A stretch of 26,244 bases of DNA, taken from the NCBI GenBank assembly GCA_965220745.1, contig CBDCQT010000008.1:1-26244 (forward strand), written 5' to 3'. Origin of the DNA: Alphaproteobacteria bacterium (GTDB lineage: Bacteria; Pseudomonadota; Alphaproteobacteria; UBA828). The notes under the pieces are model-generated. The model was not told the origin of the DNA and did no database searches. It saw only the letters and a list, made by a program, of their open reading frames with translations. Every line of letters starts with the position of its first letter. The stretch's first letter is position 1. Below are positions 1 to 26,244 of this stretch, piece by piece. The position numbers and the translations under genes were made by a program.

Positions 1-651
1 TCGGTGTTCGCGTCCATCAGTAACCGGGGACCGGCGTGAAGGGACACGGAGGCTTCGTCGAAGGCGGAGCCGGAATGCTCCCGGCGCAGAATATTGGCAC
101 CCGAGCGCAGGCGGGTCCGGTCGTTCATCGGGTACTGGTATTCGGCACCGCCCCACAGCACGAGGCCGACGCCCGAAGTGGTGAGCTGAGCCGCGTCCCG
201 CGTGAAGGGCAGGCCGTAGATGGTGATGATCCGCTCGTCGGAGCCTGCGCCGATGTTGGTGTCGGGGGCAAGGGCGAAGCCGGCGTTGTAGCTCCCAGCG
301 CTTGCGGGCGCGGATATCCGAAAGGAACGCGTGAATGTTGGCGGCGACCTCCGGGGGCACCCCGCCGGCAAGGACCGCCTCGAAGTGCCGGCGGGCGAGG
401 GAGTCCTCCCCCTTGAGATAGAAGGAGCGGGCCAGCTCCAGGCGGACGCGAACGAGGCCGGGGTCGACCACCAGCATCCGGCGGAGGACGGCGATCGCCT
501 TGTCGAGCAGCTTGTCCCGCCGGTCGCCTTCGGCCGCCACGGCGGCCTCGATCGCCTGCATGCCATCGCGAAACATGCTGCTGAGATCCTGCGCTGCGGC
601 GGGGAGGGGAAGGCCGAACACCAAAACCACAGCGGCCAGGAAACTTCGTAT
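1..651 (-). pseudogene. Slam-family exporter 2, left copy: 5' part only, with a +1 frameshift (real or sequencing error)
   Basis: Mirror of 16469-17118. GCTCCCAGC at 291-299 has three C where the intact right copy implies GCTCCAGC. Truncated by the window edge. Confidence 0.8.
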
Positions 652-744
652 CGAAACTCCTCCTGATGCCCTCCCCTGAATGCCCCTGCCGCTTGCACGC
701 GCCGAGGTCGGCATGGTGCTCGTCGCCGGTGCGCGCTCAGTCAA

Positions 745-2364
745 TCACTGGGGGGTGGCGGCAAAGGCTCCGGCCAGCGAGGCACTCGTGCCCGTGGCAT
801 CGAACCAGCCAGCCACGCCCGCGAGGTCGACCACCGGGTACTGGTTCGCCGGGTATTTGGTGCGGTCACTGAGCACCGCGTTGTCGTGGCCGTAGAAGTT
901 GGCGCCCCACGAACCTGCCACCGGCAGGCCGCCGATGTTCGCCACGGTGATTCCGCTGGCATCATCGGCGTTATCGGCCAGAGTTATATCGACGGGCATA
1001 CCGACATTTGCAGGGCTTCCTCCCCCGCCCAACGTAACCCCCCAGCCTTCCAGGAGGCGGCCGTCTTCGTGGAACCCGGTGATGCTGCCACTAAGGGTGC
1101 CAGCGGCGTCAGCGGCACCAAAATCAACGTTCAAGGTGGCGGTCGCGGTGAAGTCGCCGATCTTGGCGTTCTGCCCGCCGACCTGCCCCTGCGTGACGTA
1201 TCTGCCGACCGCGCCGCCGCGAAACGTCGCTGAGCCGGTAAGTTGGTTGAAGTTGACCAAGTTGGTTGAACCCGATTCGGCTCCACCGCCTGCAACGTAC
1301 CTGAAGTTGTAAGTCGTCCCACTGATGTTGTCCGGGATGGAGGACCAGATGCCGAAGTAGAGGAATGCATCGTCCTGATCCAGCGGCACGCCGGAAGCAA
1401 TACTGCGAGGCTTGAAGGTCCAGTTGCTTGGCGTCGTAAAGGTTGGCTGCCCTTGGCTAAATGTGACATGAGTGGCGATGTGCGCGTTGATCTCGGCGCT
1501 GGTGGGGGCGTCGCCGCTACCAACGTCAGATGCAGCGCAGCCGGTGGCACAAGTGAACGAGCCACCCGCGCCGTCGAAGCTGCCGCTTACCGTAAGCTCC
1601 GTGACGTTGGTAGTGGTAGTACCCGCCGGAGTTTCGGTTGTGGCTTGTGCCGAGCGGCCCGTCGCAAGCGATGCGTGGTCGGATATTGTGGATATATCCG
1701 GAATTGACACACCATACCGCTTCCAGAACGCCCTGGTGCTGGGCGCCTGGATGTTGGTGTAGAGGTCGACGGTTTCGTCGGTGAGTGTGTCAGCCGTTCC
1801 GGTCTGGCCGGTGAACCTGGCGCTGCGCCAGCCGCCGGGAACGGGGGGTGCCGCAGAGCCAGAGGTCAGAGTCCCCGAAGGCCTGAATGTGAGGCTGCTT
1901 CCGTGCGGCCACGAGACGGTTACCGGCCCTTGCTCATCCGCACCACCTGTCCCCAGGTCCAGCACAGCGCCAAACGAGCTGGCGCGGGCCCTGAATTCCG
2001 CTTGTTCGGCCTCGGTCAGCTTCTGCTGCGCCTCGTCGCGATCCCCTATGGCCTCGTCGCGATCCTCTACGGCCTCGTCCCGGTCCTCTACGGCCTCGTC
2101 CCGGTCCTCTATGGCCTCGTCCCGGTCCTCTATGGCCTCGTCCCGGTCCTCTATGGCCTCGTCCCGGTCCTCTATGGCCTCGTCCCGGTCCTCTACGGCC
2201 TCGTCGCGCACCCGCTCGGCTTCTTCCAGCTGCTCTTGGAGAGCCTCCTCCTCGGCCTTGGTCAGGCCGTCACTGCCCGAGCAAGCCGAGAGGGCGAAAC
2301 CGGCCGCCGCAATAAGAGCGATTGCGCTTCCGCGGGTGAGCCATGCAGCTTTCGTGCGTTTCAT
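745..2364 (-). CDS. Surface lipoprotein B with heptad-repeat stalk and C-terminal TbpB-like beta-barrel (left copy)
   Basis: 539 aa. Signal II with lipobox LSAC (Cys28). RDEA(I/V)ED repeats. C-terminal motifs GSATFRGGAVGRY, ATLNVDFG, GSWGANFYG, SLAGAFAAT resemble TbpB/fHbp-type barrels. Identical to 14756-16375. Confidence 0.85.
   Translation of the reverse strand: MKRTKAAWLTRGSAIALIAAAGFALSACSGSDGLTKAEEEALQEQLEEAERVRDEAVEDRDEAIEDRDEAIEDRDEAIEDRDEAIEDRDEAVEDRDEAVEDRDEAIGDRDEAQQKLTEAEQAEFRARASSFGAVLDLGTGGADEQGPVTVSWPHGSSLTFRPSGTLTSGSAAPPVPGGWRSARFTGQTGTADTLTDETVDLYTNIQAPSTRAFWKRYGVSIPDISTISDHASLATGRSAQATTETPAGTTTTNVTELTVSGSFDGAGGSFTCATGCAASDVGSGDAPTSAEINAHIATHVTFSQGQPTFTTPSNWTFKPRSIASGVPLDQDDAFLYFGIWSSIPDNISGTTYNFRYVAGGGAESGSTNLVNFNQLTGSATFRGGAVGRYVTQGQVGGQNAKIGDFTATATLNVDFGAADAAGTLSGSITGFHEDGRLLEGWGVTLGGGGSPANVGMPVDITLADNADDASGITVANIGGLPVAGSWGANFYGHDNAVLSDRTKYPANQYPVVDLAGVAGWFDATGTSASLAGAFAATPQ
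2029..2208 (-). repeat. 21-bp coding tandem repeat, 8 full units plus a partial unit (left copy)
   Basis: Repeated GGCCTCGTCCCGGTCCTCTA(T/C) on the + strand; mirror of 14912-15091. Confidence 0.95.
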
Positions 2365-2650
2365 CGGTGTTCTCCTTCAGAATGCATGATCACGTCTGCG
2401 GCCGGCCAAGTGGGAGCACGGCAGGGTCAGGCCGCATCTTGAGGACCCCGCCGCGCGGAACCGCCCGAGAGCACAGCGGCCACGGTCTCGTCTGTTGCAC
2501 CGTCGAACCCGCCGACCCCCTTCAACCGCTCCCGATTGGTCCCACGGGTTCCGGGTTCCGGTCATCGCCCCTGCCTCCTCCGGATGGCGTCGCGCACGCC
2601 GTGCATATCCGTCCTCATCCCGTTGCGTCGCGGGCAGTTGCTGTGTTCTC

Positions 2651-4009
2651 CTAGAACGTCCGCACCACTCCGAGCTCCGCCACGCTGCGCTCGTACTCGT
2701 AGAGCCCGAGATTGCTGTCGCGCACCTCGTGCCTCACCGTGACCTCCGGCATGAAGCCGAACAGGTCGATATGGCGGTTCGACACCGTGATCCGTCCCGC
2801 AAGCGTCTCGTCCTGCCGCGCGTCCGGCCCGTAGATCGGAAGAGGCGCCCCGTATTCCCGCCAGCGAAAGCTCGGGCCCGCCGTCACGACGAACCCGCGG
2901 GGAAGCTCCCGCGCCACGGAAAGTCCGACGATGAACTCGCGCCACGAATAGGCGTCGCTGTCGAGCGCCTCCCGGCGCCAGCCCGCAATGCCCTGCAGCA
3001 GGGTCGTCTGGCCCAGGGCGTGGGACAGGCCAACCTGCGCCGTGTAGAGGACGCCCTCGCCCAGGAAGGTCTCGTACGAGTTCCACTCCGCTCCCGCCGA
3101 CCCGCTCAGACGCCATGTCGGCGCCATCAGCCAGTCGCCTGAAAGCTCCACTCCCCCGGCACGGCTGTAGGTCTCGTTCCCCAGCTGCCGGCCCCGCGCC
3201 ACAAGCTCGGGCCGCAGCTCGAAGCGCTCGAAGAGAAACCGCGGGCCGGCCCGCAGGCTCAGCGTCTGCTCGTTGAACGCGCTCTTGCCGCTGCCGTAGG
3301 TGCGCGTGTGCAAGTGAGCCGAGGTGCGCAGCCGCACGTCGGGCGAGAGCCGCGCCTCGTAGCCGCCGCCTACGCTCGCGCTCAGCCCCACGCCGCTGGT
3401 CTGTCGTGCGTCCTCCGACAGCGTCGCAGGAAGCCCGAACAGGTCGATCTCCCGCGCGCTGGTGGCGGCGTTGATATTGGTGTCGGGGGCAAGCGAGAGG
3501 GTGCCCGTGACCGACCAGGACTTGCGTCGCCGGATGCGGTCCAGGAAGGACAGCGCGTTCGCCCGCACGGTGGGGGGCAGGTCCTCGGCCGCAAGTGCCT
3601 GACGGAAGTGGTAGGCGGCGCTGCCGTCCTCGCCCGCCTGGAAGTAGGCCAGCGCAAGGTCGAGACGGACCCGCAGCAGGGACGGGTCTCTGGCGAGCAT
3701 GGCGCGGAAGCGCGCGATCGCCTCCTGCCACTCGCCGCGCATCATCGCGATCGTGCCCCAGAGGAAGTCGATGTCGTCGATGTTCCCCTGACCCAGCTTG
3801 ACGCCCTCCAGCAGCAGCGCGGCATTGTCCGGCTCGCCCGCCGCCAACGCAGCACGGGCAGCCTCGATCAGGGCCTCTGCGGAGAGCCCCGGCGTCGGCG
3901 GCTCCTGCGCGCGCGCGGGACCGGGCAACGCCAGTGCCACAAGGACCAGGACGAGCAGCAGTATCGGGACCGGGACGAACAGGACCGCGGGCCGAACCGT
4001 GAGAGCCAT
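2651..4009 (-). CDS. Slam-family surface lipoprotein assembly modulator 1 (TPR plus DUF560-type outer-membrane barrel), left copy
   Basis: 452 aa. Sec signal ending ARA-Q. TPR-like RVRLDLALAYFQAG. APDTNINAA motif at the barrel start, amphipathic strands, C-terminal Phe (VVRTF). Directly downstream of a TbpB-barrel lipoprotein. Confidence 0.88.
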   Translation of the reverse strand: MALTVRPAVLFVPVPILLLVLVLVALALPGPARAQEPPTPGLSAEALIEAARAALAAGEPDNAALLLEGVKLGQGNIDDIDFLWGTIAMMRGEWQEAIARFRAMLARDPSLLRVRLDLALAYFQAGEDGSAAYHFRQALAAEDLPPTVRANALSFLDRIRRRKSWSVTGTLSLAPDTNINAATSAREIDLFGLPATLSEDARQTSGVGLSASVGGGYEARLSPDVRLRTSAHLHTRTYGSGKSAFNEQTLSLRAGPRFLFERFELRPELVARGRQLGNETYSRAGGVELSGDWLMAPTWRLSGSAGAEWNSYETFLGEGVLYTAQVGLSHALGQTTLLQGIAGWRREALDSDAYSWREFIVGLSVARELPRGFVVTAGPSFRWREYGAPLPIYGPDARQDETLAGRITVSNRHIDLFGFMPEVTVRHEVRDSNLGLYEYERSVAELGVVRTF

Positions 4010-4048
4010 GGAGACCTTCAGGCCATCGCGCGAGTGGCATCGGGTGAG

Positions 4049-4084
4049 AAAAAGGCGCCCGGCCCGTACCCGGACCGGGCGCCT
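4049..4084 (-). terminator. Rho-independent terminator after lipoprotein A (left copy)
   Basis: Mirror of 13036-13071; GC-rich stem followed by a T-run on the minus strand. Confidence 0.8.
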
Positions 4085-4116
4085 GCACTGGTTGAACCGT
4101 CGAGCGAGCGGGGCCG

Positions 4117-5949
4117 TTAGTCGTCTGCCTCCTTGGCCCCGCCGAAGGCACCGACGAATGCGCCGCCCTCGTTGCCTTCAGAGGCGAAGTCGAAGATGCC
4201 GCCGGCCTCCGCATTCTTCGCGCCATAGAACCCGCCACTGAACGAGCCGGTGAAGGTGGCGTCGGAGTCCAATCCGTGCATGCCGTCAATGCCCGATGCG
4301 TCGTCGTCGCCAGAGAACGTGTTGCCCGATATATCGCCCTTCAGCGTGGCGAGGTTAGTCAGGGTTGCGGTGATCGTGGCCTTGTCGAAGTCCGCTATGA
4401 TAGCGGCATCGTCGTGCAGAAGCCTGATCGTGCCTTCCCCATCCGGGTGGGCTTCCTGCACGGCAGCGGCCCAGTTGCCGTTGTACGTGGCCGAGCCAGC
4501 GTTCTGCATGTCAGCCCCAGTCATCCCGTCGCCGATGCTCTGGACGAAGCCGATGCCGAGATCCACAACCTCTTGCGTGCCGTCCTTGGCGGCCTCACCC
4601 AGCCCAGCCCAGACGCCGAAGTGCACGTGGCTGTAGTCCTTGGCCGCTGGAAGGTCGGCGGTCACGAAGACGTTTTCGTCGCCTTCGGTCGTGTCGTTGG
4701 TTCCGAGCCCGTCTTGATTGACCGCAAAATGCACGTCGACGAGTACATACTCATACTCCGCGCTCGTCTCGCCATCGCCATCAGTCGTAGCGGTGGTTTC
4801 ATTCAGCACCACATAGACCGTTGGGCTACCCGTGGCCGCAGTGTTCACAAAGGAGTACACCTGCTTTGCCTTGGTGCCCGCCTCAACTATGTCTCCAGCC
4901 GGACTATCAGTAGACCCGTCGCCAGGGGTAAGTGTTCCCGCAGTGCCGCTATTCGTCGTTGTGTCAACCTCGAAGAACATACCCACAGGGCGCAACGTAA
5001 GCTCCACGTTGGTGTCTGTTGCGAGATCGGCTCCAGAGGTAATTCCAGTCCCTCCAGAGGCCACCTCAACTGTTCCTTCCTTTTCACCCATGTGCGCGGT
5101 AGCGGCACCAGCGGCATACACCTTGACAGACCGAGTGCTTGCATAGGCTGTGATGATCTGCAAGCGCGCCATGTCGTCAGCCGAATCCACCTTCTTGCCG
5201 ATTTTGAGGTCATCACGCATCTCTGCGTTCACCTTGGGCGACACATACTCAGTTTCGGTGATGAGAACAGCATCGATAGCCACACGGCCATACGTCGCAT
5301 CACCCGTCGTCATCGGCGTGCTGAGCAGCCCCGTGGTAACCACTTGCGCGTCATCGCCAGACCCGGAAGTCACCTCGATCTTCGGCGCTTCCGCATCGAT
5401 GGTCGTCTCGCCGACGCTCTTCATCGTGCCGTCGATCTTCAACTCCATATTGGCGCTCGCGATGGCCTTTTTGCTGTATTCGTCGGCCTTCATGGCCGCC
5501 GCTTCGGCATCCGCCTGGGCTGCCCTGGCCTTCGCCAACTCTTCGCCGGCAACGCTCGCGAGCGTTGCCGCCGCCGCCGCGTCGCTGGCCGCCTTGGCTG
5601 CCATGTACGCCGTCATGGCCGCGTCGGCTTGCATCTGAGCCTTATCGGCTTGAGACATTGCCATCGCGCCGGTCTGTGCGGTCGCGAGGTTCTCCGTCGC
5701 GTCCCCGGCGTCGCTGGCCGCCATCGCTGCATTGTCCGACGCCATCTTGGCGGCATCAGCCGCGTCTGCGGCCGCCGTCTGGGTCTCCTCAAGATCCGTC
5801 GGACCCGGATCCGGCGTGGGCGTCGGCGTCTCCTCTACGACCGGCTCCGGATCATCGCCGCCGTCGTGGACGCAGCCGTACATGACGGCGGTGAGGGCGA
5901 CGATCGAGCACGCCGCCAGCAAACTGCGAGTCAACTTCGTCTTCTTCAT
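4117..5949 (-). CDS. Surface lipoprotein A with Ala-rich stalk and C-terminal TbpB-like beta-barrel (left copy)
   Basis: 610 aa. Signal II ending MYGC (Cys26). Pro/Thr linker and Ala-rich helix. C-terminal GSATYNGNW, ADFDKATITA, GSFSGGFYGAKNAEAGGIF, GAFVGAFGG typical of TbpB C-terminal barrels. SD AGGAG upstream. Confidence 0.88.
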   Translation of the reverse strand: MKKTKLTRSLLAACSIVALTAVMYGCVHDGGDDPEPVVEETPTPTPDPGPTDLEETQTAAADAADAAKMASDNAAMAASDAGDATENLATAQTGAMAMSQADKAQMQADAAMTAYMAAKAASDAAAAATLASVAGEELAKARAAQADAEAAAMKADEYSKKAIASANMELKIDGTMKSVGETTIDAEAPKIEVTSGSGDDAQVVTTGLLSTPMTTGDATYGRVAIDAVLITETEYVSPKVNAEMRDDLKIGKKVDSADDMARLQIITAYASTRSVKVYAAGAATAHMGEKEGTVEVASGGTGITSGADLATDTNVELTLRPVGMFFEVDTTTNSGTAGTLTPGDGSTDSPAGDIVEAGTKAKQVYSFVNTAATGSPTVYVVLNETTATTDGDGETSAEYEYVLVDVHFAVNQDGLGTNDTTEGDENVFVTADLPAAKDYSHVHFGVWAGLGEAAKDGTQEVVDLGIGFVQSIGDGMTGADMQNAGSATYNGNWAAAVQEAHPDGEGTIRLLHDDAAIIADFDKATITATLTNLATLKGDISGNTFSGDDDASGIDGMHGLDSDATFTGSFSGGFYGAKNAEAGGIFDFASEGNEGGAFVGAFGGAKEADD

Positions 5950-5976
5950 GGCTTCGAGGCTCTCCTTTGCATCTAG

Positions 5977-5996
5977 GAGGCCTCGGCCGAGGCCTC
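5977..5996. promoter_or_regulatory. Perfect 20-bp palindrome in the leader of left lipoprotein A
   Basis: GAGGCCTCGGCCGAGGCCTC, 10 bp outside the inverted-repeat boundary. The palindrome is seen directly; its function is inferred. Confidence 0.5.
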
Positions 5997-6246
5997 GCTG
6001 GGTTCAACAAGTCGGCCGTCAACGTACCTGACGACTCGGCAACTGTCCATAGCCCGTGAACTTCACCATACCGGCGCCCGCTTGTCTACATCGGAAAAGC
6101 GGCCATGAGCCATGAAGCGATCCCAAACCGTCATGGGGACTCCGCCCCTCGTCGCTGCTGCCTCCCTGCACATCCGCAGGCCTCCTTCGTGCCGCGCGAT
6201 GTGCTGAGCCGAATTCTCGCCACAATTCCGCGCCCTTTGCAAGCCC

Positions 6247-6264
6247 GAAATTCGACCGAATTTC
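6247..6264. promoter_or_regulatory. 8-2-8 palindrome, candidate protein-binding site
   Basis: GAAATTCG-AC-CGAATTTC. A near copy, CGAAATCGACCGAATTT, lies at 10951-10967 at the other end of the core. Confidence 0.5.
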
Positions 6265-6925
6265 AACTTGCCGAACAAAGCCTTACAGCCATGCCCCTCC
6301 GCACCTCGCCGCTCCCGGCCCCTCGCAGGAACGCGGCCTGCAGCAACCGACCGGGCCGGCCCTCGCACGGAACGCGAGGCTTCCGGTCGAACTGCCGACG
6401 CCAGACGCCGTATCGGAGCCGTCGGCACAGCGGCATCGGCATCCTCGGCGGGGTCGCGACGGTGCGCGTGGTGGAGCCAGCGACAGTGGTCACGCCAGGT
6501 TCCCGCAGCCCGCGATGTGAACGTCGACACTCAGTTAAACATGGAACAGGAGCGGGAGGTTCGCGAGCTGCCCGACCGGGGGGAATTCGGCGGTTTGAGG
6601 GGCTTTTTCGGCCTCCGGCGGACTCCTTGATGACGGTGGATTCCGGTGATTCCAGGGCCGCTACGGTGAGGGTCGCCATCAGCGCGCGCCACGAAGCGGA
6701 ACGGATTCTGGCTCGGACGCCTCCAAGTGTGATCCGCAGATGGCCTTGCCGGTTGCACCAGACGCGGCAATGAATCGGAATCGGTACGGGCCGCACCGTG
6801 TGTCCCCGCCCGTCGCCGTGAGGCAGCGCGCCGCCGTGCGCTCGTGGCATCCCGCCAGGCCCTCCGCTACTATCCTGGCCGACGGTTGCAGCATGAGCAC
6901 GCGGCTGCCCGAAGAGGATGCGGCC

Positions 6926-7957
6926 ATGCGGCACGACGAAGCCTTCAAAGCCATTTTCTCCCACAAGATTTCGGTCGAGCATCTGCTCCGCTTTCTCGCC
7001 GGCACGATCGACGACGGCCCGGACTGGATCGCAGCCTTCGACCCCGAGACCCTGGAGCCGGTGCCCACCGAGCGCATCGACGAGACCCTGCACCGCCACC
7101 TCAGCGATCTGGTCTGGCGCATGCGCCGGCGTGACGGCGGCGAAGAGGACTGGGCCTACCTCTTCGTGCTGATCGAGCTTCAGTCGTCGGTGGATCATCT
7201 GATGGCGTTCAGGGTTCGCACCTACGTGGACCTGCTCTATCGCGGGCTCCTGGCGGGTCGCCGCTTCGGCGCCTCGGACCGCCTGCCGCCGGTGCTCCCC
7301 GTGGTGCTCTACAACGGGAAATCTCCATGGACGGCGGCGACGAGCGTGGAGGAGCTGGTTGCGCCGGCGGTCCGCCCCTCCGGCGACTTGGTCCCCGTGC
7401 CCTTCTACGCCGGCGCGTCTTACGTGACGCTTGACGTCGGTCGGGTCGGGGGCGGAGACTCCCCATCGGACGATGTGCTCTCTCTCGTGATCGGCATCGA
7501 GCGGATGTCATCTTATAGTGAGGGACACGCGACGCTGCGTGAGGCGTTCTCCGTCCTTCGCGGTCCCGAGCACCGGCAGTTGCGCCGGACGTTTTATGAC
7601 TGGTTCACGATGCTCGCCGGGCAGGGCGCCGAAGGCACTTTGATCGAGGAGTTCGAGGAGATGGAACGGATTCCTGCAGAAGGAGAGATGCGGACGCCGG
7701 TGCAGGATCGCGTGCGCGCGTGGCGAGAGGCGGACCGTGAGCAGGGCCGCGCGGAGGGCTTCGAGAAGGGTATCGCGCAAGAACGCGCCTTGCTGCGACG
7801 CCTCATCGAACGCAAGTTCGGTGCGGACACCGCCGGGCGTGCTGCCTCCCTGCTGGCCGGGATCGGGGAGCCGGAGCGGCTAGCCGACGTCGGCGACTGG
7901 ATCATCGACTGCGCCTCGGGCGACGAGCTGATCGCGCGGCTGGAGCGCGCAAACTAA
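6926..7957 (+). CDS. Rpn/YhgA-like recombination-promoting nuclease (Transposase_31, PD-(D/E)XK)
   Basis: Motifs HDEAFKAIFS, SDLVWR, VLIELQSSVDHLMAFRV, LPPVLPVVLYNG..PW and C-terminal EQGRAEGFEKG..LLRRLIERKFG. Start moved from 6740 to ATG 6926, which follows GAAGAGGA and begins the family-like N-terminus. Confidence 0.88.
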   Translation: MRHDEAFKAIFSHKISVEHLLRFLAGTIDDGPDWIAAFDPETLEPVPTERIDETLHRHLSDLVWRMRRRDGGEEDWAYLFVLIELQSSVDHLMAFRVRTYVDLLYRGLLAGRRFGASDRLPPVLPVVLYNGKSPWTAATSVEELVAPAVRPSGDLVPVPFYAGASYVTLDVGRVGGGDSPSDDVLSLVIGIERMSSYSEGHATLREAFSVLRGPEHRQLRRTFYDWFTMLAGQGAEGTLIEEFEEMERIPAEGEMRTPVQDRVRAWREADREQGRAEGFEKGIAQERALLRRLIERKFGADTAGRAASLLAGIGEPERLADVGDWIIDCASGDELIARLERAN

Positions 7958-8185
7958 AGAGTGCTTCCGCCCCCTCGCGCGAAGTCGAGAGGGGGCGATA
8001 CCGCCTCGCGCTGCCCGAAGCCACGCCTGCTCGTCTTCCCATTCCGGCCATTTGCGTGTGCTCTCGCCGGTCCCCCGGCAGAAGTGGCACGTCTCCGTTC
8101 GGTAGCTGGCGCGCACGCGCAAGTCAGCCATCATGCCGGCGAGCAGGACGAGCCGGCCGGTGCCGGCGCAGAGGCGGCACCGCAT
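7880..8185 (-). CDS. Small hypothetical protein with two CxxCxGxG (DnaJ-type zinc-finger) motifs; 3' end uncertain
   Basis: CRLCAGTG and CHFCRGTG. The ORF runs through the 7968-7997 hairpin and overlaps the rpn 3' end. Confidence 0.45.
   Translation of the reverse strand: MRCRLCAGTGRLVLLAGMMADLRVRASYRTETCHFCRGTGESTRKWPEWEDEQAWLRAARGGIAPSRLRARGRKHSLVCALQPRDQLVARGAVDDPVADVG
7968..7997. terminator. Hairpin just after the rpn stop (putative terminator)
   Basis: CGCCCCCTC/GAGGGGGCG 9-bp stem 10 nt after TAA; no clear U-tract. Confidence 0.5.
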
Positions 8186-8285
8186 CACCAAGCGTCATCC
8201 CGATCCCGCAGACTGCTCAGGCAGTTGCATCCCGGAGCGGTCCACGGTGAAGGAGGGCCAGTCGGGATGCTACCAGACCCACGTC

Positions 8286-8316
8286 ATGAGCGATAGAAGC
8301 GCCGCCTATCGCTCAT
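8286..8316. terminator. 11-9-11 inverted repeat downstream of recombinase 2 (terminator or binding site)
   Basis: ATGAGCGATAG-N9-CTATCGCTCAT, 20 nt past the 8337 stop. Confidence 0.5.
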
Positions 8317-8336
8317 TCCGGGCGCGCTCCCCGGCA

Positions 8337-9533
8337 TCACGCAGGCCCGCTCCGGTCGCTCCCGCCCGGCATGATATCGGCGAAGATGCTGGCGGCCACC
8401 AGGGCTGCGGATTCCTTCACCGAGTCCCGCGCCAGGTGCGCGTACCGTGAGGTGGTCTGTATCTTCCGGTGACCCAGAAGCTTGCCGATCATCGTGAGGT
8501 CTTCGCCCAGCGCCAGGGCGCGCGACGCGAAGGAATGACGCAGGTCATGAAGCCGCACGTCGTCGAGATCGGCGCGCTCCCTGACCCGATACCAGTAGTA
8601 GGCAATGTGCTTCTGCCGCTCGCCGTGCTCCCTGCCCGCGATCACCCAGGGATTGTCCGCGAGACGCGGCAGCCCGGCCAGAACACGCGCCGCCGCCGGC
8701 GACAGCGGAACGATGCGAGGACCGGTCTTGCTATCGCGAAGCTGGATCTCGTTCCGGTGAAGCGCCACGTCGTCCCAGCGAAGCGTCAGCACCTCGCCGG
8801 ACCGGCACCCGGTCAGCATCAGGAGCTTGATCGCCGCAGCCGCGTGAACCGGAACCCGGCCCTCGGCTTCAAGATCTTCCAGGGCCTGACCGAGACGGCG
8901 GAACTCGTCCTCGGTCAGGAAGCGCTCCAGCCGCCGCGTCGGGTTGCGCGTCACGAAGCGGCAGGGGTTGCTGCCGGCAGGCAGCAGGCCCCACGCCTCC
9001 GCCCGGTTCAGCATCCGCGACAGCGCGCCCACCGTGTCGTTCGCAGCCACCGGCGTCTTGCGCAGGCGGTAGTGGAGCTCGGCAACGTGCTTGCGGTCGA
9101 GCTCGGCGATCGGCACCTTGCCCAGCTTCGGCAGGATGTGCCGCTCGATCGATTGCCTGTAGCCCTTGACCGTGTTCGGCTTGCAACGGACCGCTACGTG
9201 CTCGCGGAGGTATCTATCCGCGAGCTCCGCCACCGTCGGCCCGCCGGCTGCGTCCCGCCCGGCCCCCGGCTCGTCGCCCGCCTCGATACGGGTGAGAACC
9301 ACGGCGCCCTCCTGGCGCGCCTCGTCGGCGGAGATCACCCCGTGCCGGCCGATCGAGATCCGTTTCGTGCCCCGCGGGCCCTTGCGCTGCACCATGTAGC
9401 TCTTGCACCCGTTGGGATAGACCCGGACCCCGAAGCCGGGAAGCTCCCGGTCCCAGCACATGAACTCCTTCTCACCGGGCGTCAATGCGTCGACCACCCG
9501 GTTGGACAGCGATCTCTTCTTCAGTCGCGGCAT
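8337..9533 (-). CDS. Tyrosine recombinase/integrase 2 with N-terminal arm-DNA-binding domain (P4-like)
   Basis: 398 aa. WDRELPGFGVRVYPNG arm domain. Catalytic set TGCR, DSKTG, HDLRH, LLGH, TSRY. SD GGAGG upstream. Confidence 0.93.
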   Translation of the reverse strand: MPRLKKRSLSNRVVDALTPGEKEFMCWDRELPGFGVRVYPNGCKSYMVQRKGPRGTKRISIGRHGVISADEARQEGAVVLTRIEAGDEPGAGRDAAGGPTVAELADRYLREHVAVRCKPNTVKGYRQSIERHILPKLGKVPIAELDRKHVAELHYRLRKTPVAANDTVGALSRMLNRAEAWGLLPAGSNPCRFVTRNPTRRLERFLTEDEFRRLGQALEDLEAEGRVPVHAAAAIKLLMLTGCRSGEVLTLRWDDVALHRNEIQLRDSKTGPRIVPLSPAAARVLAGLPRLADNPWVIAGREHGERQKHIAYYWYRVRERADLDDVRLHDLRHSFASRALALGEDLTMIGKLLGHRKIQTTSRYAHLARDSVKESAALVAASIFADIMPGGSDRSGPA

Positions 9534-9551
9534 GTTCCTGTCCTCCGTCCC

Positions 9552-10772
9552 TTACGCCGCCTCCGCCGACGGCATGCCGTCGGCGGAGGCCTGGGTGGCA
9601 CCCTCCGTGCGCAGGATGTCGTCCTCGATGCTGCCGCCCACGCGGGCAACGGCAACCTTCTCCGCCTCCTGCGACAGGTGCGCATACCGCGCCGTGCTGC
9701 TCACGTCCGTGTGGCCGAGAAGGCGGCCGATCATCGGAAGCTGAAGACCGAGGGCCAGGGCGCGCGAGGCGAACGAATGACGCAGGTCATGAATGCGCAC
9801 GTCCTCGACCTCTGCCTTCTCGCGCACTCGGTGCCAGTGGCTGGTCAGCGTCGCCAGATGGCGGTTGGGCTTGCCCCCCGTGATCACCCAGGGGCTGCGC
9901 CTCACCCGCTTGATCCCCGCCAGCACCTCCAGCACGGCGGGCGTCAGCGGCACCATCCGCGCACCGGTCTTCGCGTCGCGCAGGCGAATCTCCCCTGCCT
10001 TGCGGTCGATGTCGCTCCACCTGAGCGTCTGTATCTCCCCGAGCCGGCACCCCGTCAGCATCAGCAGGCGCAGCGCCGCCGCAGCCCGCGCCGACACCGG
10101 GCCCTCGGCCTCAAGCTCGCACAGCGCCTCGCCCACCCTGCGGTACTCATCCTCCGTGAGGAAGCGCTCGCGGCGGCCCTCCTTGTAGCGCAGAACGAAC
10201 CGGCACGGGTTGCCGCCGGGGGACGCAATACCCCACGCCTCGGCCAACGAGAACATCTTTGACAGCACCATCAGCGCCCGGTTCGCAGCGCGCGGCGTCT
10301 CCCGCAGGCCATAGTGCAGGGCTTCGACCTCGGCACGCCCCACCTTGTCCAGGGACATCGCGCCCAGCGCCGGCAGGATGTGGTTCCTGAGCGAGCCCTT
10401 GTAGATGCCCTGCGTGTGGGCGTTGCAGTGCACCGCGACATGGGCCTCGAGGTAGCGCTCGGCCAGTTGGGCGACGGTGAGCACAGGCTCGGACTCCGCC
10501 TTCGCCGGGTCCTCGCCCTTCTTGATGCGGGCGATGGCCGCAGCAGCCTTCTTGCGCGCCTGATCGGGGGTAAGATCGCCGTGGCGTCCGAGCGAGACGC
10601 GCCTGATGCCCACCGGCCCCCGGCACTGCGCGACATAGATCTTGGCGCCTGAGGGGTAGACCCTGACGCCGAAGCCGGGCAGCTCCTTGTCCCAGAAGGT
10701 GGCGTCCTTCTTCTCGACGGCGAGCGCGTCGACGGTGCGCTTCGAGATCGAGAGCTCACTTCGTTTAGGCAT
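9552..10772 (-). CDS. Tyrosine recombinase/integrase 1 with N-terminal arm-DNA-binding domain (P4-like)
   Basis: WDKELPGFGVRVYPSG, TGCR, DAKTG, HDLRH, LLGH, TARY. ATG 10772 preferred over TTG 10778 because GGAG lies at 10783-10780. Confidence 0.93.
   Translation of the reverse strand: MPKRSELSISKRTVDALAVEKKDATFWDKELPGFGVRVYPSGAKIYVAQCRGPVGIRRVSLGRHGDLTPDQARKKAAAAIARIKKGEDPAKAESEPVLTVAQLAERYLEAHVAVHCNAHTQGIYKGSLRNHILPALGAMSLDKVGRAEVEALHYGLRETPRAANRALMVLSKMFSLAEAWGIASPGGNPCRFVLRYKEGRRERFLTEDEYRRVGEALCELEAEGPVSARAAAALRLLMLTGCRLGEIQTLRWSDIDRKAGEIRLRDAKTGARMVPLTPAVLEVLAGIKRVRRSPWVITGGKPNRHLATLTSHWHRVREKAEVEDVRIHDLRHSFASRALALGLQLPMIGRLLGHTDVSSTARYAHLSQEAEKVAVARVGGSIEDDILRTEGATQASADGMPSAEAA
9559..9590. 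repeat. Perfect 32-bp palindrome in the last codons of recombinase 1
   Basis: GCCTCCGCCGACGGCA|TGCCGTCGGCGGAGGC. Confidence 0.9.
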
Positions 10773-11030
10773 CGTCAAGCTCCGCGTTCATCATACCTTC
10801 GTTCACCGGTTGGCGCAGTCACCGGGGGCCTGAGCAACGCCGTGCGGCGCCTCGTCATGAACGGCCCGTCCAGGTCCTGTCCTCACGGCCATCACCCCTT
10901 CCGTCACCCGAGGACCGAATCCCGGCCTCCGGCGGGAAATTCGGGGTGGGCGAAATCGACCGAATTTACCGTCATCACTTCGGTAATCTCCGACATCAAA
11001 CTCCAGCGTATTGGATCGTACATCTGACGT

Positions 11031-11059
11031 ATCGTAGAGGCATGTGGGCGAATAGTCAA
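11031..11059 (-). promoter_or_regulatory. Putative sigma70 promoter for the recombinase pair
   Basis: Minus strand TTGACT (11059-11054), 17-nt spacer, TACGAT (11036-11031), in an AT-rich intergenic region. Confidence 0.6.
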
Positions 11060-11088
11060 CCCACTGTATAAACACTAAATATCGTACT

Positions 11089-11108
11089 CCTACGTAGCTC
11101 TACGTAGG
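11089..11108. promoter_or_regulatory. 9-2-9 palindrome upstream of right lipoprotein A
   Basis: CCTACGTAG-CT-CTACGTAGG; two self-complementary CTACGTAG units with a 10-bp period. Confidence 0.5.
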
Positions 11109-11170
11109 TCTGACGGCAAAAGTGGGGAAAACGCTACACCCTACTTTTACAAGAGGAGAGCCTCGAAGCC

Positions 11171-13003
11171 ATGAAGAAGACGAAGTTGACTCGCAGTTTG
11201 CTGGCGGCGTGCTCGATCGTCGCCCTCACCGCCGTCATGTACGGCTGCGTCCACGACGGCGGCGATGATCCGGAGCCGGTCGTAGAGGAGACGCCGACGC
11301 CCACGCCGGATCCGGGTCCGACGGATCTTGAGGAGACCCAGACGGCGGCCGCAGACGCGGCTGATGCCGCCAAGATGGCGTCGGACAATGCAGCGATGGC
11401 GGCCAGCGACGCCGGGGACGCGACGGAGAACCTCGCGACCGCACAGACCGGCGCGATGGCAATGTCTCAAGCCGATAAGGCTCAGATGCAAGCCGACGCG
11501 GCCATGACGGCGTACATGGCAGCCAAGGCGGCCAGCGACGCGGCGGCGGCGGCAACGCTCGCGAGCGTTGCCGGCGAAGAGTTGGCGAAGGCCAGGGCAG
11601 CCCAGGCGGATGCCGAAGCGGCGGCCATGAAGGCCGACGAATACAGCAAAAAGGCCATCGCGAGCGCCAATATGGAGTTGAAGATCGACGGCACGATGAA
11701 GAGCGTCGGCGAGACGACCATCGATGCGGAAGCGCCGAAGATCGAGGTGACTTCCGGGTCTGGCGATGACGCGCAAGTGGTTACCACGGGGCTGCTCAGC
11801 ACGCCGATGACGACGGGTGATGCGACGTATGGCCGTGTGGCTATCGATGCTGTTCTCATCACCGAAACTGAGTATGTGTCGCCCAAGGTGAACGCAGAGA
11901 TGCGTGATGACCTCAAAATCGGCAAGAAGGTGGATTCGGCTGACGACATGGCGCGCTTGCAGATCATCACAGCCTATGCAAGCACTCGGTCTGTCAAGGT
12001 GTATGCCGCTGGTGCCGCTACCGCGCACATGGGTGAAAAGGAAGGAACAGTTGAGGTGGCCTCTGGAGGGACTGGAATTACCTCTGGAGCCGATCTCGCA
12101 ACAGACACCAACGTGGAGCTTACGTTGCGCCCTGTGGGTATGTTCTTCGAGGTTGACACAACGACGAATAGCGGCACTGCGGGAACACTTACCCCTGGCG
12201 ACGGGTCTACTGATAGTCCGGCTGGAGACATAGTTGAGGCGGGCACCAAGGCAAAGCAGGTGTACTCCTTTGTGAACACTGCGGCCACGGGTAGCCCAAC
12301 GGTCTATGTGGTGCTGAATGAAACCACCGCTACGACTGATGGCGATGGCGAGACGAGCGCGGAGTATGAGTATGTACTCGTCGACGTGCATTTTGCGGTC
12401 AATCAAGACGGGCTCGGAACCAACGACACGACCGAAGGCGACGAAAACGTCTTCGTGACCGCCGACCTTCCAGCGGCCAAGGACTACAGCCACGTGCACT
12501 TCGGCGTCTGGGCTGGGCTGGGTGAGGCCGCCAAGGACGGCACGCAAGAGGTTGTGGATCTCGGCATCGGCTTCGTCCAGAGCATCGGCGACGGGATGAC
12601 TGGGGCTGACATGCAGAACGCTGGCTCGGCCACGTACAACGGCAACTGGGCCGCTGCCGTGCAGGAAGCCCACCCGGATGGGGAAGGCACGATCAGGCTT
12701 CTGCACGACGATGCCGCTATCATAGCGGACTTCGACAAGGCCACGATCACCGCAACCCTGACTAACCTCGCCACGCTGAAGGGCGATATATCGGGCAACA
12801 CGTTCTCTGGCGACGACGACGCATCGGGCATTGACGGCATGCACGGATTGGACTCCGACGCCACCTTCACCGGCTCGTTCAGTGGCGGGTTCTATGGCGC
12901 GAAGAATGCGGAGGCCGGCGGCATCTTCGACTTCGCCTCTGAAGGCAACGAGGGCGGCGCATTCGTCGGTGCCTTCGGCGGGGCCAAGGAGGCAGACGAC
13001 TAA
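11171..13003 (+). CDS. Surface lipoprotein A with C-terminal TbpB-like barrel (right copy)
   Basis: Same protein as 4117-5949; lipobox Cys26; SD AGGAG at 11154-11158. Confidence 0.88.
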   Translation: MKKTKLTRSLLAACSIVALTAVMYGCVHDGGDDPEPVVEETPTPTPDPGPTDLEETQTAAADAADAAKMASDNAAMAASDAGDATENLATAQTGAMAMSQADKAQMQADAAMTAYMAAKAASDAAAAATLASVAGEELAKARAAQADAEAAAMKADEYSKKAIASANMELKIDGTMKSVGETTIDAEAPKIEVTSGSGDDAQVVTTGLLSTPMTTGDATYGRVAIDAVLITETEYVSPKVNAEMRDDLKIGKKVDSADDMARLQIITAYASTRSVKVYAAGAATAHMGEKEGTVEVASGGTGITSGADLATDTNVELTLRPVGMFFEVDTTTNSGTAGTLTPGDGSTDSPAGDIVEAGTKAKQVYSFVNTAATGSPTVYVVLNETTATTDGDGETSAEYEYVLVDVHFAVNQDGLGTNDTTEGDENVFVTADLPAAKDYSHVHFGVWAGLGEAAKDGTQEVVDLGIGFVQSIGDGMTGADMQNAGSATYNGNWAAAVQEAHPDGEGTIRLLHDDAAIIADFDKATITATLTNLATLKGDISGNTFSGDDDASGIDGMHGLDSDATFTGSFSGGFYGAKNAEAGGIFDFASEGNEGGAFVGAFGGAKEADD

Positions 13004-13035
13004 CGGCCCCGCTCGCTCGACGGTTCAACCAGTGC

Positions 13036-13071
13036 AGGCGCCCGGTCCGGGTACGGGCCGGGCGCCTTTTT
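13036..13071 (+). terminator. Rho-independent terminator between lipoprotein A and Slam 1
   Basis: AGGCGCCCGGTCCG-GGTA-CGGGCCGGGCGCCT followed by TTTT. Confidence 0.82.
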
Positions 13072-13110
13072 CTCACCCGATGCCACTCGCGCGATGGCCT
13101 GAAGGTCTCC

Positions 13111-14469
13111 ATGGCTCTCACGGTTCGGCCCGCGGTCCTGTTCGTCCCGGTCCCGATACTGCTGCTCGTCCTGGTCCTTGTGGCACTGGCGTTGCCCGGT
13201 CCCGCGCGCGCGCAGGAGCCGCCGACGCCGGGGCTCTCCGCAGAGGCCCTGATCGAGGCTGCCCGTGCTGCGTTGGCGGCGGGCGAGCCGGACAATGCCG
13301 CGCTGCTGCTGGAGGGCGTCAAGCTGGGTCAGGGGAACATCGACGACATCGACTTCCTCTGGGGCACGATCGCGATGATGCGCGGCGAGTGGCAGGAGGC
13401 GATCGCGCGCTTCCGCGCCATGCTCGCCAGAGACCCGTCCCTGCTGCGGGTCCGTCTCGACCTTGCGCTGGCCTACTTCCAGGCGGGCGAGGACGGCAGC
13501 GCCGCCTACCACTTCCGTCAGGCACTTGCGGCCGAGGACCTGCCCCCCACCGTGCGGGCGAACGCGCTGTCCTTCCTGGACCGCATCCGGCGACGCAAGT
13601 CCTGGTCGGTCACGGGCACCCTCTCGCTTGCCCCCGACACCAATATCAACGCCGCCACCAGCGCGCGGGAGATCGACCTGTTCGGGCTTCCTGCGACGCT
13701 GTCGGAGGACGCACGACAGACCAGCGGCGTGGGGCTGAGCGCGAGCGTAGGCGGCGGCTACGAGGCGCGGCTCTCGCCCGACGTGCGGCTGCGCACCTCG
13801 GCTCACTTGCACACGCGCACCTACGGCAGCGGCAAGAGCGCGTTCAACGAGCAGACGCTGAGCCTGCGGGCCGGCCCGCGGTTTCTCTTCGAGCGCTTCG
13901 AGCTGCGGCCCGAGCTTGTGGCGCGGGGCCGGCAGCTGGGGAACGAGACCTACAGCCGTGCCGGGGGAGTGGAGCTTTCAGGCGACTGGCTGATGGCGCC
14001 GACATGGCGTCTGAGCGGGTCGGCGGGAGCGGAGTGGAACTCGTACGAGACCTTCCTGGGCGAGGGCGTCCTCTACACGGCGCAGGTTGGCCTGTCCCAC
14101 GCCCTGGGCCAGACGACCCTGCTGCAGGGCATTGCGGGCTGGCGCCGGGAGGCGCTCGACAGCGACGCCTATTCGTGGCGCGAGTTCATCGTCGGACTTT
14201 CCGTGGCGCGGGAGCTTCCCCGCGGGTTCGTCGTGACGGCGGGCCCGAGCTTTCGCTGGCGGGAATACGGGGCGCCTCTTCCGATCTACGGGCCGGACGC
14301 GCGGCAGGACGAGACGCTTGCGGGACGGATCACGGTGTCGAACCGCCATATCGACCTGTTCGGCTTCATGCCGGAGGTCACGGTGAGGCACGAGGTGCGC
14401 GACAGCAATCTCGGGCTCTACGAGTACGAGCGCAGCGTGGCGGAGCTCGGAGTGGTGCGGACGTTCTAG
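13111..14469 (+). CDS. Slam-family exporter 1 (right copy)
   Basis: Same protein as 2651-4009: signal peptide, TPR, barrel, terminal Phe. Confidence 0.88.
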   Translation: MALTVRPAVLFVPVPILLLVLVLVALALPGPARAQEPPTPGLSAEALIEAARAALAAGEPDNAALLLEGVKLGQGNIDDIDFLWGTIAMMRGEWQEAIARFRAMLARDPSLLRVRLDLALAYFQAGEDGSAAYHFRQALAAEDLPPTVRANALSFLDRIRRRKSWSVTGTLSLAPDTNINAATSAREIDLFGLPATLSEDARQTSGVGLSASVGGGYEARLSPDVRLRTSAHLHTRTYGSGKSAFNEQTLSLRAGPRFLFERFELRPELVARGRQLGNETYSRAGGVELSGDWLMAPTWRLSGSAGAEWNSYETFLGEGVLYTAQVGLSHALGQTTLLQGIAGWRREALDSDAYSWREFIVGLSVARELPRGFVVTAGPSFRWREYGAPLPIYGPDARQDETLAGRITVSNRHIDLFGFMPEVTVRHEVRDSNLGLYEYERSVAELGVVRTF

Positions 14470-14755
14470 GAGAACACAGCAACTGCCCGCGACGCAACGG
14501 GATGAGGACGGATATGCACGGCGTGCGCGACGCCATCCGGAGGAGGCAGGGGCGATGACCGGAACCCGGAACCCGTGGGACCAATCGGGAGCGGTTGAAG
14601 GGGGTCGGCGGGTTCGACGGTGCAACAGACGAGACCGTGGCCGCTGTGCTCTCGGGCGGTTCCGCGCGGCGGGGTCCTCAAGATGCGGCCTGACCCTGCC
14701 GTGCTCCCACTTGGCCGGCCGCAGACGTGATCATGCATTCTGAAGGAGAACACCG

Positions 14756-16375: not shown

Positions 16376-16468
16376 TTGACTGAGCGCGCACCGGCGACGA
16401 GCACCATGCCGACCTCGGCGCGTGCAAGCGGCAGGGGCATTCAGGGGAGGGCATCAGGAGGAGTTTCG

Positions 16469-17748: not shown

Positions 17749-18050
17749 TTGAACGAAGCCGCTACGCGGAGTTGGGGGCGTAGGGTTCGCTCAGTTTCGC
17801 GATGCCGCAGGTGCTTCTGGCGGGTGTCGCGTGCATTGCAAGTCGTGCCGAATGTCGAAGCGCCCGTGAGGTGAGAGACGCCGGCAGCCCCTCGATCACC
17901 AGTGGTTAGCATCGATCTCCGAGACGGTCCGCCGTCGGAACGGTTCGGCGGCTCGCCGTCGCGATCACGGGAGATCGACGATGACCGAGAAAGCCGCCAA
18001 CGGGGCAACCGGCACCCCTCTTCGCCAGAAGATGATCGACCAGATGTGCA
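17749..18050 (+). mobile_element. Left 302 bp of the outer IS91-like element (left terminus plus first 23 codons of its recombinase, ATG 17981)
   Basis: 17750-18050 is repeated at 18052-18352. Starts TTGAACGAAGCCGC. The interrupted sequence resumes at 23980. Confidence 0.88.
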
Positions 18051-18282
18051 ATGAACGAAGCCGCTACGCGGAGTTGGGGGCGTAGGGTTCGCTCAGTTTC
18101 GCGATGCCGCAGGTGCTTCTGGCGGGTGTCGCGTGCATTGCAAGTCGTGCCGAATGTCGAAGCGCCCGTGAGGTGAGAGACGCCGGCAGCCCCTCGATCA
18201 CCAGTGGTTAGCATCGATCTCCGAGACGGTCCGCCGTCGGAACGGTTCGGCGGCTCGCCGTCGCGATCACGGGAGATCGACG

Positions 18283-19161: not shown

Positions 19162-19167
19162 GCGCGC

Positions 19168-20421: not shown

Positions 20422-20700
20422 TCCCCTCGCTTCAGCTTCTTGCGCCGATGCCGTCACCCCGGCAGGCCAACGAGCTCGTGCGCGGTCTCACGCGCGGGTG
20501 AAGCCTCCCCGCCGACTCAGGGCGATCCCCCCATCATCGTGACGACCGGCATCTCGGCAGCGGCGGAAACAGCGGCAACGGCCCCGCCAATCGTCCCTTG
20601 TCGGTGATCATCTAAAAGCGCGGATAGTTGATCATTTCGCCCGGTGGGCGCGGTGAGTTGCCTGCTGCCGCGTTGGCGGTTGGAGGCATTCCTCATAAAA

Positions 20701-23719: not shown

Positions 23720-23937
23720 TCAACCCATCGAGACCGCCCGGCAGCACCGCGGCGGAGCCGGGCCAACCGCCAAACCCCGATCGTCAGGACTGCACCCCAC
23801 CGACCGCGCCAAACCGCGGATGATGATCAAATATGCGCGCTTCTAAGTGATCGCCAACATCCCTTCGTAAGCCCTCCATCAGCGCACTTTCCACATACCA
23901 GCCACCTGAACTCGGGGCCCGCGGCTTCGTTCAAACA

Positions 23938-24789: not shown

Positions 24790-24795
24790 GCGCGC

Positions 24796-26049: not shown

Positions 26050-26244
26050 TCCCCTCGCTTCAGCTTCTTGCGCCGATGCCGTCACCCCGGCAGGCCAACG
26101 AGCTCGTGCGCGGTCTCACGCGCGGGTGAAGCCTCCCCGCCGACTCAGGGCGATCCCCCCCATCATCGTGACGACCGGCATCTCGGCAGCGGCGGAAACA
26201 GCGGCAACGGCCCCGCCAATCGTCCCTTCGTAAGCCCTCCATCA

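Follow-up and report, generated by a model that had tools for sequence, protein, structure and literature searches.

Why should the identity between two inverted copies of a lipoprotein operon end precisely at a ribosome-binding site? This question is raised by a locus that fills our window, the whole stretch of 26,244 nt analysed here, which is the entire contig C8 of an alphaproteobacterial genome assembly (G000, with 13 contigs, 4.82 Mb and 67% G+C). Two arms, each holding an operon for lipoproteins and Slam proteins, lie inverted around a central 5.2-kb element that encodes a pair of tyrosine recombinases, Int1 and Int2, and at each end of this element stands the same 10-mer, AGGAGAGCCT, containing the ribosome site of the adjoining lipoprotein gene. 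The reading that we prefer, at a probability of roughly 0.45 on the comparisons given below, is that this ribosome site doubles as the crossover core (or terminus) of an element with an integrase pair, by which lipoprotein operons are joined anew to alternative leaders.

The point at which arm identity ends

The left arm, an inverted copy of the lipoprotein operon, occupies positions 1-5966 on the minus strand and the right arm 11154-17118 on the plus strand, around a centre of 5187 nt. An inverted-repeat search matched 295-5966 with 11154-16825 at 100% identity and 1-295 with 16824-17118. In a global alignment of the arms there is a single difference in 5966 nt, CCC on the left against CC on the right at about position 294. 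The extra C shifts the reading frame of the left copy of the second Slam gene and is probably a consensus error at the thinly covered contig end. Since the contig starts within the left arm, the length seen is a lower bound.

Ungapped identity stops with the first A of AGGAGAGCCTCGAAGCCATG (5966/11154), past which the leaders are unrelated; BLAST extends the arm match 3-4 nt further only through gaps. An earlier note on this DNA, made from the letters alone, had likewise placed the end of identity at the first base of AGGAG, and both the repeat search and the alignment agree with it, as do the flanking leader sequences that it quoted. On this alignment the two positions are the outer ends of the 5.2-kb element, each ending in AGGAGAGCCT(CGAAG). 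Motif search and the joint census described below put the left 10-mer, ribosome-binding site and proposed core at 5957-5966 (minus strand) and the right one at 11154-11163 (plus strand). Arm identity must end at AGGAG because the same operon joins both termini and two unrelated leaders begin there.

An invariant joint between leaders and genes

The joint was compared with its counterparts in relatives, which are denoted by handles (G004, G005 and so on) and are samples of their groups. Leader classes R, La and Lb were defined by eye on alignments. The joint census drew on ten genomes or assemblies, with loci amounting to about 0.41 Mb, the comparison of leader/gene pairs on 47 sites and the analysis of column conservation on 35 sites. 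Metagenome data are Logan contigs, short unitigs of mixed strains.

A query made of the R leader and the gene start matched 15 genomes among the 20 others searched in the genus, and 36 of the 68 matches listed begin at query positions 370-375, within 5 nt of AGGAG. The first 10 bases are invariant over the 35 sites. The next ~85 nt, comprising the spacer and the signal peptide MKKTKLTRSLLAACSIVALSAVMYGC, are conserved at the nucleotide level, including the codons ACT, AGT and TTG, and beyond them the sites are unalignable. AGGAGAGCCT opens this ~95-nt module, which in the right arm runs from 11154 to 11250 on the plus strand and consists of the ribosome site, a 7-nt spacer and the signal peptide MKKTKLTRSLLAACSIVALTAVMYGC to the lipobox cysteine. 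The spacer from the 10-mer to ATG varies among sites (cgaagcc, caaccg, cgagcc, cagac, cgaag). All 31 distinct copies of AGGAGAGCCT in the census stand at joints, 27 between leader and gene and 4 between leader and non-gene sequence, and none lies elsewhere.

The sequences upstream of the 10-mer fall into three classes: R leaders adjoin Int2, La leaders stand at the far end of the element, and Lb leaders adjoin integrase pairs of a 55-65% identity class. Gene starts that bear the module abut an element terminus in 4 of 4 cases in G000 and in 6 of 6 in the G004 region. The layout of lipoprotein-Slam, La, (YhgA), Int1, Int2, R and lipoprotein-Slam recurs in the better assemblies of G004 (on one contig), G005, G011, G013, G014 and G020 and on a metagenome contig; the genes on its left and right are usually not the same. 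The counterpart arms of G004 have diverged (83% at the lipoprotein gene start, 87% in SlamA, unalignable between). As far as these alignments go, the boundary is not a random breakpoint.

At five joints no gene follows, and La leads into the 10-13-mer AGGAGAGCCT and then into non-gene sequence; one is in G000 (C9:17589), two are in G004 and one each in G011 and G015. Genes resembling those of integrative and conjugative elements (SSB, Toprim, PIN) are neighbours of the G004 joints, and an SNF2 helicase gene is the neighbour in C9. Gene-less joints (C9:17589, which is L001 about 5380-5590; L103 17793; G004 region 67310; L113 16065; L032 8464) have a conserved flank, ggggtaggacattcgctacaccc, in common, followed ~130-160 nt on by a segment resembling the integrase-proximal R leader. 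This flank shares a 42-nt motif and cgctacac with the R leaders, and no consistent attP/attB scheme could be derived from the comparison.

Reassortment of leaders and genes

Six pairs of sites join the same gene to unrelated leaders, and within each pair the modules differ at 0-3 positions, only at +43, +73 and +76. Eight pairs join the same leader to different genes, with the first difference at +10 or +12 in three of them and at +32 to +56 in the other five. One metagenome contains R|geneA, R|geneB and Lb|geneB, which locates the joint between -1 and +11. G011 holds one La...R element twice, with an internal identity of 99.7-100% that, at the La end, stops exactly after the 10-mer. Comparative mapping of this kind places the exchange point on, or at either edge of, AGGAGAGCCT.

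Another G011 pair, L077/L079, had been considered as a cassette exchange and turned out to be a segmental duplication of >11 kb that is 96-100% identical, where the sole difference is a patch of ~33 nt directly upstream of the core; it is not independent evidence for core exchange and is still counted among the six same-gene pairs. Between L115 (about 1925-1960) and L116 (about 1960-1995), in a G011 duplication of >11 kb and 96-100% identity, the one part that differs, and differs completely, is a patch of ~33 nt that reaches from the last gcgtag repeat to the core. The patch types recur in other genomes, as if the spacer were a third exchangeable module.

Logan contigs that are 92-99% similar to the window come from runs X1 and X3, labelled sponge metagenome. 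None of these short unitigs spans the junction with informative flanks, and none listed is joined at 5966 or 11154. Arm and centre unitigs are of similar depth, which was given no weight because depth in these contigs is not a copy number. One X1 contig departs from the window at 11261 into a different lipoprotein gene, which shows only that related strains have other genes behind the same module.

The earlier note had proposed that two paralogous lipoprotein loci have the stretch from Shine-Dalgarno sequence to signal peptide in common and that this stretch contains or borders the crossover. The stretch proved to be common to four gene starts in this genome and to the 15 genomes of the genus mentioned above, and the exchange maps to between -1 and +10/+12, on the 10-mer or at its edge. 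The note had also named what would speak against its proposal, namely a 20-mer at the boundary that occurs only here and no recombinant junctions near it. The 20-mer has two copies in the window (5947-5966, minus strand, and 11154-11173, plus strand; none expected from 100 shuffles); it recurs exactly at C9:27710 and with a single mismatch at C10:809377, near the end of that contig, and reassorted joints map to it.

The central element and its integrases

Both recombinases are encoded on the minus strand, Int1 at 8337-9533 and Int2 at 9552-10778. By their profiles they have a P4-type architecture, with Arm-DNA-bind_3 (arm-binding), SAM-like and catalytic domains, and they are about 52% identical to each other. 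A motif check (R..HxxR..H..Y) found TGCR, HDLRH, LLGH and RYAH in both, with R-H-R-Y kept, and Int2 aligns to XerD. In G011 an insertion sequence with long terminal inverted repeats lies directly beside the Int2 start codon (L112 13160-16730), and the Int2 gene of the other element copy (L113) is split by a separate insertion.

The terminus on the Int2 side is the R leader, the 375 nt between the Int2 start and the right ribosome site (10779-11153, plus strand). It contains clustered CGTA/TACG repeats (9 in 10951-11153 against 1.5 expected, a number reached in none of 2000 shuffles), the motif cgctacac and a predicted integrase promoter at 11059-11031 (minus strand). The terminus distal to the integrases is the La leader (5967-6104, minus strand), assigned by alignment with its class, in which the palindrome GAGGCCTC occurs twice (5977-5984 and 5989-5996). 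On the plus strand between La and Int1 are a 222-aa open reading frame rich in Arg, Pro and Ser (6105-6773), a doubtful gene that lacks a family match and has 48% identity to its counterpart at the same place in G005, and a gene for a YhgA/Rpn-like (Transposase_31) PD-(D/E)XK nuclease (6740-7957; PF04754 at 66.1 bits, the NCBIfam Rpn match being under its cut-off).

As in an invertible switch, inverted repeats bound the segment and a recombinase is encoded inside it, which is also the case in L033 (see below). Both leaders fall inside the putatively invertible segment.

Other identities for the element were considered and rejected. A tRNA-targeting P4 island does not agree with the lack of any tRNA in the window or with end cores that are inverted and not direct. 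An integron does not agree with the scores of Int1 and Int2 against TIGR02249 (58.8 and 55.7 bits, cut-off 265); attC-like cassette ends were not seen either, though no search aimed at them was made. A direct repeat, gaaattcgaccgaattt, near both ends of the centre is an exact match of only 12 nt that is not kept in C9, and it was dropped. No Rfam match was obtained for 5700-11500 at E<=1 and no PADLOC match for five proteins, and a plasmid collection yielded only generic integrases at <50% identity.

The 15-mer and the integrase pair in other lineages

The 15-mer AGGAGAGCCTCGAA(G) adjoins relatives of Int2 and Int1 (68-73% identity) in L045, G195 and L033. The L045 locus has an Int2 relative of 72% identity and a lipoprotein beginning MSTYRNLM..., followed by a Slam gene. 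G195, which belongs to another family, has three sites, with Int2 and Int1 relatives of 73% and 69% identity and a lipoprotein beginning MSTQKNLI.... The L033 record, which carries the label Gammaproteobacteria, has a YhgA-Int2-Int1 element bounded by two inverted copies of the 15-mer, a 148-nt module of its own and a lipoprotein beginning MTTDTQIRTPF.... The signal peptides of all three share nothing with the module of this genus; judged from these loci, the core travels with the integrase pair and not with the signal peptide. Given that the joint bears the same 10-15-mer in several bacterial lineages, the translation start signal is probably a site of DNA recombination as well.

Among 400 other genomes of the class, the 15-mer was found in 5, with more than one copy only in G195. 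More distant relatives of the integrase pair are without adjoining lipoproteins. In an unrelated organism, a 2.6-kb unit that consists only of a ~230-nt leader and Int2-Int1 relatives is present in at least 9 copies, which are 84-93% identical, sometimes truncated, and have unrelated flanks (records L034-L036, L047, L050, L051, L053, L056 and L060).

Predicted folds of the leader RNAs

In predicted RNA folds of the L-type leaders, an upstream GAGGCCUC/CCUCCU pairs with the ribosome site. The La leader of C8 (5930-6010, minus strand) has a predicted free energy of -27.5 kcal/mol (z -2.9) with the ribosome site paired, the two copies of the palindrome GAGGCCTC being its partners in the predicted RNA. 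The values are -31.4 kcal/mol (z -2.3) for the Lb leader of C10 and -31.5 kcal/mol (z -1.2) for the La leader of G020. The ribosome site is predicted to be largely open in R leaders (C8 R, z -2.1, with the stem elsewhere; C9 R, z +0.9). On these models, the leader that a gene receives may set how well the gene is translated.

The lipoprotein operons and their surroundings

The operon of each arm comprises genes for a 610-aa lipoprotein (SLP610), a Slam (DUF560) protein (SlamA), a second lipoprotein of 539 aa (P539) and a second Slam protein (SlamB), and the SLP610 genes of both arms are transcribed outward from the centre. Open reading frames and profiles place the right copies, all on the plus strand, at 11171-13003 (SLP610), 13111-14469 (SlamA), 14756-16375 (P539) and 16376-17695 (SlamB, which runs past the arm end). 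The left copies, all on the minus strand, lie at 4117-5949 (SLP610), 2651-4009 (SlamA), 745-2364 (P539) and 1-744 (SlamB', cut by the contig start and frameshifted at about 294).

The two right-arm Slam genes match PF04575 at 78.6 bits (13111-14469) and 78.2 bits (16376-17695) against a cut-off of 22, and TPR_Slam is matched at 35.7 (cut-off 35.2). SLP610 has a signal peptide ending ...MYGC and a TbpB-like C-terminal barrel (PF01298, 48.9 bits, cut-off 26, residues 483-606); its score against NCBIfam slam_lipo is 47.6, under the cut-off of 80. P539 has an LSAC lipobox and no family match. With Slam genes adjacent and lipobox and barrel present, the arms are, by these profiles, putative Slam-dependent surface lipoprotein operons. 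P539 has its own Slam gene downstream, and its N-terminal heptad run (EDRDEAI/V, nine 7-aa repeats) is encoded by nine tandem 21-nt repeats at 14863-15135 (left arm 1987-2259).

Directly past SlamB is a perfect tandem duplication of a ~301-nt unit (17750-18050 = 18052-18352). A unit of a small tyrosine recombinase (SAM_4 type) and an IS91-family Y2 transposase occurs twice, at 18352-20599 and 23980-26228, 5628 nt apart. Between these copies, 21426-23823 holds a Mu/rve-type transposase gene (HTH, rve, Mu-transpos_C_2) and then an open reading frame without family matches, which together look like an IS21-like pair. A further repeat starts at the contig end (23860-23881 = 26223-26244) with a period of 2363 nt, indicating that the right contig end also lies in repeats.

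Weighing the explanations

Several observations weigh against a ribosome site that serves as integrase core. The 10-mer is not unique, with 23 copies in the genome and 5 of them at these joints. The sequences directly inside the core differ among La, Lb and R leaders. Tyrosine recombinases usually have a dyad of core-type binding sites, and none was seen by eye around the core, only GAG-C-CTC and a weak AAGCTG-N5-CAGTTT. The element was found in both orientations between the same flanks in none of the reads, contigs and genome pairs compared, the Logan contigs being too short to tell. Both arms carry the same operon, so that a leader swap at this locus would alter only the leader and not the gene expressed. 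It had also been suggested that the translation-ready cassette can be joined to either promoter; this part of the proposal found no support, as a simple consensus scan recognised no outward sigma-70 promoter in either leader, its sole match being the inward integrase promoter. Arm modules are mutually nearest in only 3-4 of 10 elements (G000, G004 and G014, with G015 about tied, and not G005, G011, G013, G020, the L145/L146 contig or L033). As they are not nearest in most elements compared, a general concerted evolution of the two arms was also rejected. Lastly, G000 has at least 10 further tandem integrase pairs and one trio (30-57% identity) with no lipoprotein or Slam gene beside them, on contigs C3, C5, C10, C12 and C13 (for example three in a row at C12:31405-35249). 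Given these lipoprotein-free pairs and the multi-copy relative in another organism, Int1 and Int2 could be ordinary mobile-element genes.

Might the boundary be simply the edge of homology? RecA-dependent gene conversion could act between inverted paralogous operons of a multigene family in which translation and secretion keep ribosome site and signal peptide conserved and homology starts at AGGAG, and the integrase element would then be a bystander between divergent operons. Inverted repeats are well known to undergo conversion, all paralogs keep the module, the divergence of the orthologous arms in G004 makes the identical arms here a derived state, and the genome's integrase pairs of this family mostly have no relation to lipoproteins. 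To this is added the G015 element. In its short-read assembly one and the same gene stands at each terminus, the core is unbranched, and the module variants of the two termini are unlike at +43 and +76 before they merge. These ends fit two real copies recombining homologously at least as well as core exchange, a further point against the latter, and they favour real duplicates kept alike by conversion. Homologous crossovers should, however, scatter over the ~95 nt of the module, whereas from position 0 on each module variant goes with its gene, and pairs that share a leader diverge from +10/+12. Moreover, the 15-mer adjoins related integrase pairs in three other lineages with unrelated signal peptides, the five gene-less joints retain the 10-13-mer alone, and all module-bearing gene starts examined in G000 and the G004 region abut an element terminus. 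On balance we consider a mere homology edge unlikely. The same can be said of a transposon with AGGAGAGCCT as its 10-bp terminal inverted repeat and two tyrosine recombinases after the manner of SE, GInt, RIT and Tn554, bearing ribosome sites that face outward and inserting just upstream of lipoprotein start codons, so that the joints would come from inserted element copies with neither reciprocal exchange nor inversion. The two near-identical copies of the G011 element at different places, bounded by the 10-mer, would suit such an element, as would the variable spacer between 10-mer and ATG and the multi-copy state of a related integrase pair amid unrelated flanks. Elements with several tyrosine recombinases, terminal inverted repeats of 13-34 bp and target specificity are described in the accessible part of PMC10214605. 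For both ends to insert repeatedly 5-7 nt ahead of a lipoprotein ATG, however, the target would already have to resemble the terminus, a requirement that is hard to separate from a shared core, and no target duplication or empty site was found. Nor was a tfp/srap-like gene, ginC/D, a third rit or other third recombinase gene, or tnpC recognised by Pfam or NCBIfam, which have no models for these partners, and no direct comparison with them was made.

That the left arm is absent from the genome as drawn, through a chimeric join or through the stitching of two orientation states into a palindrome, seems very improbable to us. The window is a whole small contig whose left arm stops mid-gene at the contig start, close to the homopolymer error that is the sole arm difference; all lipoprotein-Slam loci of the assembly are on small contigs or at a contig end; and BLAST found arm sequence on no other contig of the assembly. 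The truncated left arm and the terminal homopolymer error would fit reads of a flipped minority form equally well. Fold-back chimeras, however, lack a unique spacer of 5.2 kb, and the La|core|gene joint is a natural type in many assemblies. The independent G015 assembly, with the same gene at both ends, 2 single-nucleotide polymorphisms and no branch at the core, suggests two real copies. The stitched-orientation variant would itself be evidence of inversion.

Returning to the preferred reading, we infer that Int1 and Int2 would act at the 10-15-mer as the crossover core of paired tyrosine integrases. Recombination between the two inverted cores would invert the element, and recombination between cores of different loci would re-join translation-ready lipoprotein operons to other leaders. 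An R-type leader would leave the ribosome site open, and an L-type leader would fold GAGGCCUC/CCUCCU onto it. We suggest, tentatively, that the integrase-pair element may have specialised on the ribosome sites of Slam-dependent lipoprotein operons. A broader proposal, which we regard as rather doubtful though worth stating, is that host-associated marine bacteria may possess an 'expression-site' system that has spread horizontally. In it the ribosome site AGGAGAGCCTCGAAG would be the crossover core of a dedicated integrase pair, and inversion or inter-locus exchange by a domesticated integrase-pair element would move whole Slam-lipoprotein operons between open and sequestering leaders.

Significance and comparison with known systems

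A literature search found no paper that combines Slam lipoproteins with inversion, phase variation or site-specific recombination, and by a term search DUF560 and signal peptides are not mentioned in the accessible text of a survey of programmed inversions (PMC9881135). In the uncultured alphaproteobacteria compared here, the Slam lipoproteins appear as a recombining multigene family. If the integrases act at the core, this would be a compact re-wiring of whole operons that leaves coding sequence untouched; it would also give P4-like integrases a new type of target, ribosome sites rather than tRNA ends, and offer a testable handle on the variation of symbiont surfaces towards host or phage. 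What is known of Slam-exported lipoproteins is chiefly their part in host interaction and immune evasion in Neisseria, Moraxella and Pasteurellaceae. Should the expression-site proposal be true, it would amount to programmed surface variation in Gram-negative symbionts. Even on a conservative reading, this Gram-negative lipoprotein family clearly has a 5' recombination module with sharp bounds.

In the integron platform (intI, attI, Pc), the integrase gene is transcribed away from a site that joins promoter-less, translation-ready units to a resident leader. The element here resembles it in that the integrase is transcribed away from the joining site and differs in its units, which are entire operons of 2-6 kb. 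The SE, GInt, RIT and Tn554 elements, as far as the accessible part of PMC10214605 describes them, have tandem tyrosine recombinases at one end, short terminal inverted repeats, target specificity and several copies per genome. Tandem tyrosine recombinases and several element copies per genome are also found here, but these integrases are of P4 type with Arm-DNA-bind_3, and the termini are ribosome sites that abut lipoprotein genes. Slam loci (PMC5449769) are similar to the arms in gene order, with a TbpB-like C-terminal barrel lipoprotein followed by a DUF560/Slam outer-membrane protein; neither recombinases nor a shared 5' cassette are mentioned in the accessible part of that paper.

Two lipoprotein systems with a common gene start come closer to the present case in other respects. 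According to the accessible text of PMC6011951, the vmp genes' upstream homology sequence (UHS) in Borrelia hermsii, 61-62 bp with the ribosome site and the first 26 bp of coding sequence, is the proposed upstream crossover. The start region is common to all lipoprotein cassettes there too, and the non-reciprocal outcome of two copies resembles the identical arms here. In B. hermsii, however, gene conversion into a single expression site is supplied by silent archives that lack promoters and lie on linear plasmids, and no site-specific recombinase is dedicated to it (PMC6011951, same part), whereas all copies here are complete operons with leaders, flanked by integrases. In the vpma/Xer1 system of Mycoplasma agalactiae (also vsp/Mbr of M. 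bovis), recombination takes place between -72 and the start codon (PMC2268961, accessible part). That system likewise has a variable family of surface lipoproteins, a conserved 5' untranslated region and signal peptide, a tyrosine recombinase encoded at the locus, and intact genes that are re-joined upstream. In the present family, comparative mapping also puts recombination inside a conserved 5' untranslated region and signal peptide. In vpma, one Xer-like recombinase and one promoter serve six genes and inversions were shown experimentally, as the same part of PMC2268961 reports. Here, in contrast, each start examined has its own R, La or Lb leader in place of a single promoter for many silent genes, and a separate P4-type integrase pair with arm-binding domains accompanies almost every gene. 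The mapped joint coincides with the ribosome site, and the lipoproteins, predicted to be Slam-exported, belong to a Gram-negative alphaproteobacterium.

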